Of a stretch of 10,974 bases of DNA, positions 8,848 through 9,833 are shown one piece after another. Position 1 is the stretch's first letter, and every line of letters begins with the position of its first letter. The position numbers and the translations under genes are program-made. This DNA is from a virus: the UHGV virus genome UHGV-1688096. One strand, written 5' to 3'. The notes under the pieces are model-generated. The model did no database searches. It was given only the letters and a program-made list of their open reading frames with translations, and was not told the origin of the DNA.

Positions 8848-9453
8848 ATGAGCAAAGAATTTTACGCAAGACTGGCAGCTATTCAGGAGAATCTGAACGC
8901 GCCAAAGAATCAGTACAACTCATTCGGTAAATATAAATACAGAAGCTGCGAAGACATTCTTGAAGGCGTTAAGCCGTTACTGAATGGCCTGTTTTTATCA
9001 ATCAGCGATGAAGTTGTGTTGATTGGTGATCGGTATTACGTGAAAGCCACGGCAACTATTACCGATGGCGAAAACAGTCATACGGCAACCGCACTTGCAC
9101 GAGAGGAAGAAAGCAAGAAAGGAATGGATTCTGCACAAGTTACTGGAGCTACAAGCTCTTATGCACGCAAGTATTGCCTCAATGGTTTGTTCGGCATTGA
9201 TGATGCGAAAGATGCAGATACAGACGAGCATAAACATCAGCAGAACGCAGCAGCAAAGCAATCAAAACCATCACCTACATCTGAACAGGTTCTAAAAGCA
9301 TTCACTGACGCAGCAATGCAGAAAAACACCGTAGAAGAGCTTAAACAGGCGTTCGCCAAAGCGTGGAAGATGCTCGAAGGCACACCGGAGCAGCACAAAG
9401 CGCAGGACGTTTACAACATCAGACGAGACGAATTAGAAGGAGCTGCTGCTTAA
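8848..9453 (+). CDS. erf: Erf-family single-strand annealing recombinase
   Basis: ORF-track ORF 8818..9453 (TTG) trimmed to ATG at 8848; product MSKEFYARLAAIQENLNAPKNQYNSFGKYKYRSCEDILEGVKPLL... matches my recollection of P22 Erf closely over the N-terminal domain. Confidence 0.85.
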   Translation: MSKEFYARLAAIQENLNAPKNQYNSFGKYKYRSCEDILEGVKPLLNGLFLSISDEVVLIGDRYYVKATATITDGENSHTATALAREEESKKGMDSAQVTGATSSYARKYCLNGLFGIDDAKDADTDEHKHQQNAAAKQSKPSPTSEQVLKAFTDAAMQKNTVEELKQAFAKAWKMLEGTPEQHKAQDVYNIRRDELEGAAA

Positions 9454-9833
9454 TGGCACATTCGATTACTGTAAGACTAAACAAGCCCGCAAGAGAGTTT
9501 CAGGCCGGGGAAAATATCGGATTCAACATCCGTGCTGGCGTTCAGTATTACGATCGCCAGACAAAAAAGAAAGAATGGACAAACTACAGCGCCGTTGTAT
9601 TTGCCAAGCCGGGAGCGCAAGCGGATTACTACCGTAGTGTTCTTGTTGAAGGTGGAATTGTGGAAATTACCGGAGAAAACATCAGGGTTGATGTTTATCA
9701 GGGGCAAAATGGTCAATCAATCACTCTTGAATTACTGAATGCAAAGATTGGATTTGCAGCTTCAGGAAATGGCCAGCAGCAAAGTAGCAATCATCAAAAT
9801 CATCCTGAATACGACGATTCAATTCCCTTCTAG
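9453..9833 (+). CDS. SSB-like protein with C-terminal DDSIPF tail
   Basis: ATG at 9453 overlaps the erf stop (TAATG); ORF track gives an upstream start at 9363 that would overlap erf out of frame. 126 aa ending ...NHPEYDDSIPF, like the acidic DDDIPF tail of bacterial SSB; the N-terminal region is not an obvious canonical SSB OB fold by eye. Confidence 0.6.
   Translation: MAHSITVRLNKPAREFQAGENIGFNIRAGVQYYDRQTKKKEWTNYSAVVFAKPGAQADYYRSVLVEGGIVEITGENIRVDVYQGQNGQSITLELLNAKIGFAASGNGQQQSSNHQNHPEYDDSIPF

Follow-up and report, generated by a model that had tools for sequence, protein, structure and literature searches.

Genes for phage single-stranded DNA-binding proteins (SSBs) are frequent in annealase operons, and the C-terminal tails of SSBs have been summarised as determinants of annealase activity (PMC12054835, PNAS 2025). 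The SSB of phage HK620 binds single-stranded DNA (ssDNA), and both the binding of Sak4 to SSB-coated ssDNA and a 10-fold increase in recombineering depend on its tail NDYPPF (PMC5928155). Another phage protein, HK97 gp40, was named SSB-1b; its predicted structure is like those of bacterial SSBs, and it shares no more than 15% sequence identity with the SSB of ES18 (PMC12315714, Genome Research 2025). The same study describes the HK75-type module, which consists of an anti-RecBCD protein, an SSB and an annealase, contains no nuclease, and was found in 27 of 325 panel phages. Here, we analysed the open reading frame (ORF) at positions 9453..9833 (plus strand) of the virus genome UHGV-1688096, a stretch of 10,974 nucleotides that is called the window throughout. 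The 126-residue product is 90% identical to HK97 gp40 over the full length (E=2e-78), and its gene likewise has erf and abc2 as neighbours, an arrangement that is also present in HK022. The module in the window is of the HK75 type, as it comprises an anti-RecBCD protein, an SSB and an annealase, and lacks a nuclease.

The identification of the window protein as SSB-1b is correct, but as a prediction it is not new: the name of the family and its predicted fold have been published (PMC12315714), PHROGs label the family as an SSB, and the window protein closely resembles HK97 gp40. As to its function, we consider it probable (roughly 70%) that SSB-1b coats ssDNA during phage recombination and uses its C-terminal tail to recruit Erf and/or host partners. 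The identity of the protein as an SSB is far more secure than the assignment of these partners.

Identity, predicted fold and gene boundaries

Ordinary sequence searches reveal little likeness between SSB-1b and canonical SSBs. Pfam returns no match at E<=1, PF00436 included, and TIGR00621 scores 15.3 bits against a curated bacterial SSB cut-off of 53.95. The best sequence match in the PDB is an SSB, at E=0.05 (phmmer) and thus below significance, and a search of the PDB with the family profile reaches E=0.29 (hmmsearch), the marginal matches again all being SSBs. The relationship becomes visible only by PHROGs, profile-profile and fold comparison. PHROG_44, 'single strand DNA binding protein', matches the whole length of the protein with 3.4e-27, and the alignment by hhalign of a 44-sequence family profile (A1) with E. 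coli SSB, whose gene was located in NC_000913 for this purpose, has a probability of 91.8% and an E-value of 7e-7 over the core. The statement of an earlier reading made from the sequence alone (the sequence-only reading), that the body of the protein does not resemble canonical SSB, therefore holds for ordinary searches (Pfam, TIGR00621 and PDB), while the SSB-like character it proposed is supported by the fold matches and the profile-profile link to E. coli SSB. SSB-1 of Sf6 and ES18 belongs to the same functional class and to the same kind of module (PMC12315714), but is robustly of the PF00436 type by sequence, whereas SSB-1b is unmatched by Pfam.

The structure prediction that the sequence-only reading had suggested as a check yields a confident OB fold, followed by a disordered linker and a C-terminal tip. 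In the AlphaFold2 model, which was calculated on A1, the mean predicted local distance difference test score (pLDDT) is 85, and residues 1-103 (9453..9761, plus strand) mostly exceed 90 and form a β-barrel with one helix (residues 55-63). This putative ssDNA-binding domain, which also contains the aromatic residues aligned by hhalign, is followed by a Gln/Ser/Asn/His-rich linker (residues 104-117; 9762..9803, plus strand) that is variable among homologues and coincides with pLDDT values below 50 at residues 107-118. Confidence rises slightly at the acidic tip PEYDDSIPF (residues 118-126; 9804..9830, plus strand). A Foldseek search against the PDB returned 44 matches at E<=1e-3, all of them to SSBs or PriB. 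Bacterial and mitochondrial SSBs rank first and PriB below them; apicoplast SSBs are also among the matches. TM-scores range from 0.4 to 0.55 and identities from 10 to 18%, those in the structural alignments with E. coli SSB and its bacterial relatives being 14-18%. Among predicted viral structures, all named Foldseek matches are SSBs.

E. coli SSB stacks on ssDNA via the aromatic residues W40, W54, F60 and W88, as seen in the SSB-ssDNA structure. In the hhalign comparison, which is a sequence alignment and not a structural superposition, these positions correspond to Y32, W42, F50 and Y82 of SSB-1b. Among 121 family sequences, the equivalents of W54 and F60 are aromatic in 98% each and the equivalent of W88 in 67%. 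The predicted fold together with the profile evidence identifies SSB-1b as an SSB-type OB-fold protein with genuine, though distant, homology to the bacterial-type SSB superfamily. It has in common with E. coli SSB the OB fold, the alignable aromatic residues and the succession of OB domain, linker and acidic IPF tip. The two proteins differ in that E. coli SSB is the product of an essential housekeeping gene, whereas SSB-1b is encoded by a phage accessory gene. They also differ in the length of the region behind the OB domain, which covers about 65 residues in E. coli SSB according to its known domain limits and 23 in the window protein; the median of the SSB-1b family is 50. With 126 residues, 23 of which follow the OB domain, the window protein has all three parts, OB domain, linker and tip, at one of the smallest sizes found in natural SSBs, which makes it useful for questions about the contribution of the linker.

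The gene consists of 126 codons and a TAG stop codon. Its ATG (9453-9455) shares base 9453 with the TAA stop codon of erf (9451-9453), resulting in a one-base TAATG overlap, and a Shine-Dalgarno sequence, AAGGAG (9437..9442, plus strand), can be read within the 3' end of erf, 10 nucleotides before the ATG. The overlap of the start with the erf stop had been noticed correctly in the sequence-only reading. A mechanical ORF list offers a longer version of 156 residues that starts with GTG at position 9363. This version was rejected because nearly all full-length SSB-1b homologues begin at the ATG, with the sequence M-A/S-H-S/T-I-T-V. Antisense ORFs are present within the gene, e.g. at 9477-9716 (minus strand); the conserved coding frame is that of the plus strand.

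A word-indexed search of a set of 5.8 billion proteins retrieved 323 homologues of the window protein, and an exhaustive hidden Markov model (HMM) search of 1.84 billion cluster representatives retrieved 220 clusters at 50% identity (E<=1e-3). Since the exhaustive search returned so few clusters, SSB-1b is a small family in its own right, which at the sequence level stays separate from the very large family of canonical SSBs. In E. coli, 579 out of 5,426 complete genomes carry the gene, where it is labelled 'hypothetical protein'. The DNA of the ORF is approx. 97% identical to that of HK022, mEp213, mEp043, HK633, HK544, Sf101 and Stx-converting phages, in which the copies are unannotated or likewise labelled 'hypothetical protein'. 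The number of homologues, their presence in E. coli genomes and the conserved order of the locus (see below) identify ORF 9453-9833 as a genuine gene and not a chance ORF.

Two phages carry altered copies. In phage HF4s (MT833387; locus L002:2501-2896), a 94-residue 'ssb protein' is followed by a 36-residue 'putative phage protein', apparently the result of a split by a frameshift. In mEp234 (NC_019715.1, 23243-23386), the match is confined to residues 1-48, with 100% identity, which suggests a truncated or recombined SSB-1b copy next to the Erf gene of this phage.

The C-terminal tail

The C-terminus of the 126-residue product reads ...NHQNHPEYDDSIPF in the window sequence, its end also being given as ...HQNHPEYDDSIPF, and the DDSIPF ending reported in the sequence-only reading is confirmed. 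The last nine residues of E. coli SSB are MDFDDDIPF. Compared with these, the tip PEYDDSIPF has the D-D-x-I-P-F pattern and the aromatic residue at position -7 in common. DDDIPF is also the form in which the tail of E. coli SSB is quoted in the work on HK620 (PMC5928155). In enterobacterial homologues of SSB-1b, the linker varies freely in length and sequence, while D-D-x-I-P-F is kept. An IPF end is found in 49 and an x-P-F end in approx. 64 of 120 full-length cluster representatives; 8 more carry PF plus one extra residue. For a C-terminal tripeptide, the frequency of these tails is far above that expected by chance. About 60% of 124 non-redundant viral loci encode proteins ending in PF, with a mean of 2.4 acidic residues in the last ten positions.

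The tail is not uniform within the family. Prophage copies from Serratia, Rahnella and Chimaeribacter have ends such as WDDEPPF and WDDTPPF, and both IPF and PPF tails adjoin Erf in prophages of Enterobacterales. Gln-rich ends such as ...(G/P)NFNQPQR recur in members without PF, e.g. in marine IMG/VR loci (L099:4001-4459). A subgroup (P0126, P0152 and P0159; L171:4001-4570; L213:2200-2763) carries an extra conserved segment past IPF, with the motif ...D-x-IPF-AP(I/V)GL-x(5-8)-L-x-x-C-(I/M). This extension would bury the free C-terminal phenylalanine that is needed for canonical SSB-tail binding.

The prototype of the family differs from the window protein in exactly this region. The HK97 gp40 reference sequence (NC_002167, 23786-24175; L003:2787-3176, minus strand) ends in ...YDDSNPILI, whereas the proteins of HK022 and the window have an intact ...YDDSIPF. 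Comparison with window positions 9780-9860 reveals a 1-nucleotide insertion in HK97 (GATTcCAATCCC) just before the tail, which is due to a sequencing error or else means that HK97 has really lost the docking tip. The main text of PMC12315714 is silent on the tail of SSB-1b, and the HK97 frameshift is a possible reason for this omission.

The erf-ssb-abc2 unit and gene neighbourhoods of the family

The gene upstream of SSB-1b, erf (8848..9453, plus strand), encodes a 201-residue single-strand annealing protein of the Erf family (Pfam PF04404, ERF, 1.6e-44; PHROG_155, 2.4e-57) that is 75% identical to P22 Erf. Directly downstream, 23 nucleotides past the SSB stop codon, abc2 (9857..10150, plus strand) encodes the 97-residue anti-RecBCD protein 2 (Pfam PF11043, Anti-RecBCD_p2, 6.1e-64; PHROG_656). 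A simple scan detected nothing that resembles a promoter or terminator between erf, ssb and abc2; its terminator-like matches lie inside genes and are no more numerous than expected by chance. The three genes form one unit in the early-left operon of a lambdoid (HK022/HK97-like) prophage or phage, which is presumably transcribed from pL. Because of the TAATG overlap and the absence of signals between the genes, SSB-1b is probably translationally coupled to erf. The proposal of the sequence-only reading that both proteins are expressed together is supported.

In all of the 80 closest IMG/VR loci, the order erf-ORF-abc2 is retained, with the same spacing at the erf-ORF junction in 79 of them. 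As an alignment of close family members used as IMG/VR seed retrieved near-identical loci only, the neighbourhoods were also analysed with the distant seeds A3 and A4, which gave varied contexts. Upstream genes were called, clustered and identified for these distant contexts, yielding 124 non-redundant loci, 121 of which have an upstream ORF. An Erf homologue is encoded within three upstream genes in 78 of these 121 loci, and RecT in nine. In distant loci, Erf usually comes first and the SSB last, with a nuclease (YqaJ or a 3'-5' exonuclease) or else a protein like Gp157/Mu-Gam between them. In Vibrio phages, RecT is followed by a PD-(D/E)XK nuclease and SSB-1b, while in a Serratia prophage Erf and SSB-1b are immediate neighbours with overlapping start and stop codons. 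A start/stop overlap is also present in a Leminorella prophage (L239:2638-3917), where a Sak4-like AAA_24 protein is encoded directly upstream of an SSB-1b that ends in DFDDDIPF. In the same prophage, a gene for DNA polymerase III theta (HOT-like) is located a few genes downstream of SSB-1b (L239:6513-6743).

Judged by these neighbourhoods, SSB-1b proteins are SSBs of recombination modules that prefer Erf without being exclusive to it. The sequence-only reading had envisaged a recombination-dedicated SSB, which fits the location next to an annealase in nearly every locus examined; a dedication to Erf itself does not hold, because RecT and Sak4-like partners are also found.

Two uncharacterised proteins without Pfam matches recur next to SSB-1b. 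One of them, of approx. 212 residues (phrog_11517; L088:3020-3658 and 11 similar loci), is encoded between a DUF3799 PD-(D/E)XK nuclease and the SSB, with no known annealase nearby, and is a candidate for a so far unrecognised annealase. The other, of approx. 304 residues (phrog_1376; L089:2923-3837 and about 19 similar loci), is encoded between Erf and the SSB. It may represent a new type of nuclease, considering that its slot is taken by YqaJ or a 3'-5' exonuclease elsewhere.

The slot between annealase and abc2 is filled differently in two well-known relatives. In HK620, whose mosaic genome is otherwise very similar and approx. 96.6% identical to the window across half of the window length, it is occupied by HkaK (SSB-2). 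The HkaK tail also ends in PF, but the partner is the RecA-like, ATP-dependent Sak4 and not Erf. Homology between SSB-1b and HkaK was rejected, with an hhalign probability of 0.3%. In P22, the slot is occupied by Abc1 (94 residues), the start of which also overlaps the erf stop codon. Homology to Abc1 was rejected as well, since BLASTP produced no alignment at E<=100 and Abc1 has neither an OB signature nor a PF tail. The Erf proteins of the window and of P22 (L006:2758-3372), counted from their alignment, are approx. 93% identical in the N-terminal ~135 residues and approx. 44% identical in the last ~55. This divergence, together with the presence of Abc1 in place of an SSB in P22, is compatible with, but no proof of, a role of the Erf C-terminal domain in the recognition of partners.

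The remainder of the window corresponds to a segment of a lambdoid phage or prophage. NinX, NinB, a DnaB-like helicase (P), O, cII and cro are encoded on the minus strand, and a LexA-like cI and N on the plus strand, followed by erf, the SSB gene, abc2 and an Ea22-like gene. The window is mosaic and approx. 96% identical to phiv205-1, HK022 and HK620 across 50-58% of its length. Directly downstream of cI, a 98-residue ORF with a hydrophobic N-terminus and no Pfam match (6563-6859, plus strand) occupies the position of exclusion genes that are expressed in lysogens.

Proposed role of SSB-1b in phage recombination

Abc2 has been cited as a modifier of RecBCD (PMC5928155; PMC12315714). In the proposed sequence of events, host RecBCD modified by Abc2 would resect the ends of phage DNA, and SSB-1b would coat the resulting ssDNA. 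The exposed tail of SSB-1b would then recruit Erf, and possibly host SSB-interacting proteins, and the recruited Erf would load and anneal complementary strands. This role is inferred by analogy with the HK620 SSB and Sak4, an experimental precedent that comes from an unrelated SSB.

Several observations weigh against a role of SSB-1b as a tail-bearing SSB for Erf. Its likeness to canonical SSBs is weak, as illustrated by the absence of a Pfam match. At the position of W40, no more than 45-73% of the 121 family sequences have an aromatic residue, and His55, which is critical for the E. coli SSB tetramer, is aligned by hhalign with the almost invariant Thr43. Because of this replacement, the quaternary structure of SSB-1b may differ from that of E. 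coli SSB. The tail is not universal, as approx. 30% of the distant, mostly marine, family members lack PF. Furthermore, no clear correlation exists between the kind of tail (IPF, PPF or other) and the type of the neighbouring annealase, so that annealase-specific recognition gains no positive support from this comparison. P22 uses a 75%-identical Erf and has no phage SSB; Erf therefore does not strictly depend on one. The phage of the window also encodes its own DnaB-like helicase, which leaves room for a role in replication. Finally, SSB-1b-type proteins have not been studied experimentally (PMC12315714), and a published ssDNA-binding assay for the family was not found in the literature; its ssDNA binding, oligomeric state and tail interactions are all inferred.

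A more detailed version of this role is tentative and, taken as a whole, rather unlikely. According to it, SSB-1b would not be a general coat for ssDNA but a minimal loading platform dedicated to annealases, with a tip that docks onto the C-terminal domain, which evolves fast, of Erf or, in other phages, of RecT or Sak4. SSB-1b would outcompete or replace host SSB on resected phage DNA and borrow host nucleases or helicases that bind SSB tails, which would offset the missing exonuclease of the module, and the short linker would be an adaptation that bars it from host SSB assemblies.

It is also conceivable, but unlikely, that the tail serves as a mimic or decoy, which captures or titrates ExoI, RecJ, RecQ, RecO, PriA or chi, either on phage ssDNA or as a free protein, so that these partners are borrowed for phage recombination or kept off phage DNA ends. 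The close match of PEYDDSIPF to the E. coli tail, including the aromatic residue at position -7, would suit such a function, as would the absence of a nuclease from the HK75-type module and the region of only 23 residues behind the OB domain, which is unlike that of housekeeping SSBs. Strict mimicry of the host tail is, however, not what the PPF-type ends of the Serratia, Rahnella and Chimaeribacter copies and the many members without PF would lead one to predict, and since both the OB domain and its aromatic residues are conserved, DNA binding is likely to be important in addition to the tail.

Many phage SSBs work in replication. It is nevertheless improbable that SSB-1b is a replication SSB which cooperates with the phage DnaB-like helicase P and with O, and for which the position in the recombination module is merely historical. 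The window encodes both of these replication proteins, and a host-type tail could bind polymerase III chi or primase. Yet the SSB-1b gene belongs to the pL recombination module and not to the pR replication module, in distant phages it accompanies genes for annealases and nucleases, frequently with an overlap of start and stop codons, and the same type of helicase is encoded by P22, which has no SSB, and by HK620, which has an unrelated one.

PriB is an OB-fold dimer that is encoded in the rpsF-priB-rpsR-rplI operon. A function of SSB-1b outside the SSB class, e.g. as PriB-like primosome factor, as inhibitor or as decoy for the sensor of a defence system, is very improbable, because SSBs rank above the similarly folded PriB in both fold searches, the PHROG SSB profile covers the whole protein and the aromatic residues align with DNA-contact residues of SSBs, and because SSB-1b has a phage recombination-module context and an acidic PF tail, which PriB, to our knowledge, lacks.

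The result leaves the understanding of phage recombination unchanged; SSB-1b, as an SSB of a recombination module, fills a slot that had been predicted. What is worth recording is the conserved host-type tail, its absence from the HK97 prototype sequence, and the unusually short linker. The gene is present in approx. 10% of complete E. coli genomes and is still called 'hypothetical protein' by the NCBI pipeline, so that many annotations would benefit from a correct name. Annealases of the Erf family have seen little use in recombineering, and if the SSB-1b tail stimulates Erf as the HK620 SSB does Sak4, Erf and SSB-1b together (~330 codons) would constitute a compact and portable editing module.

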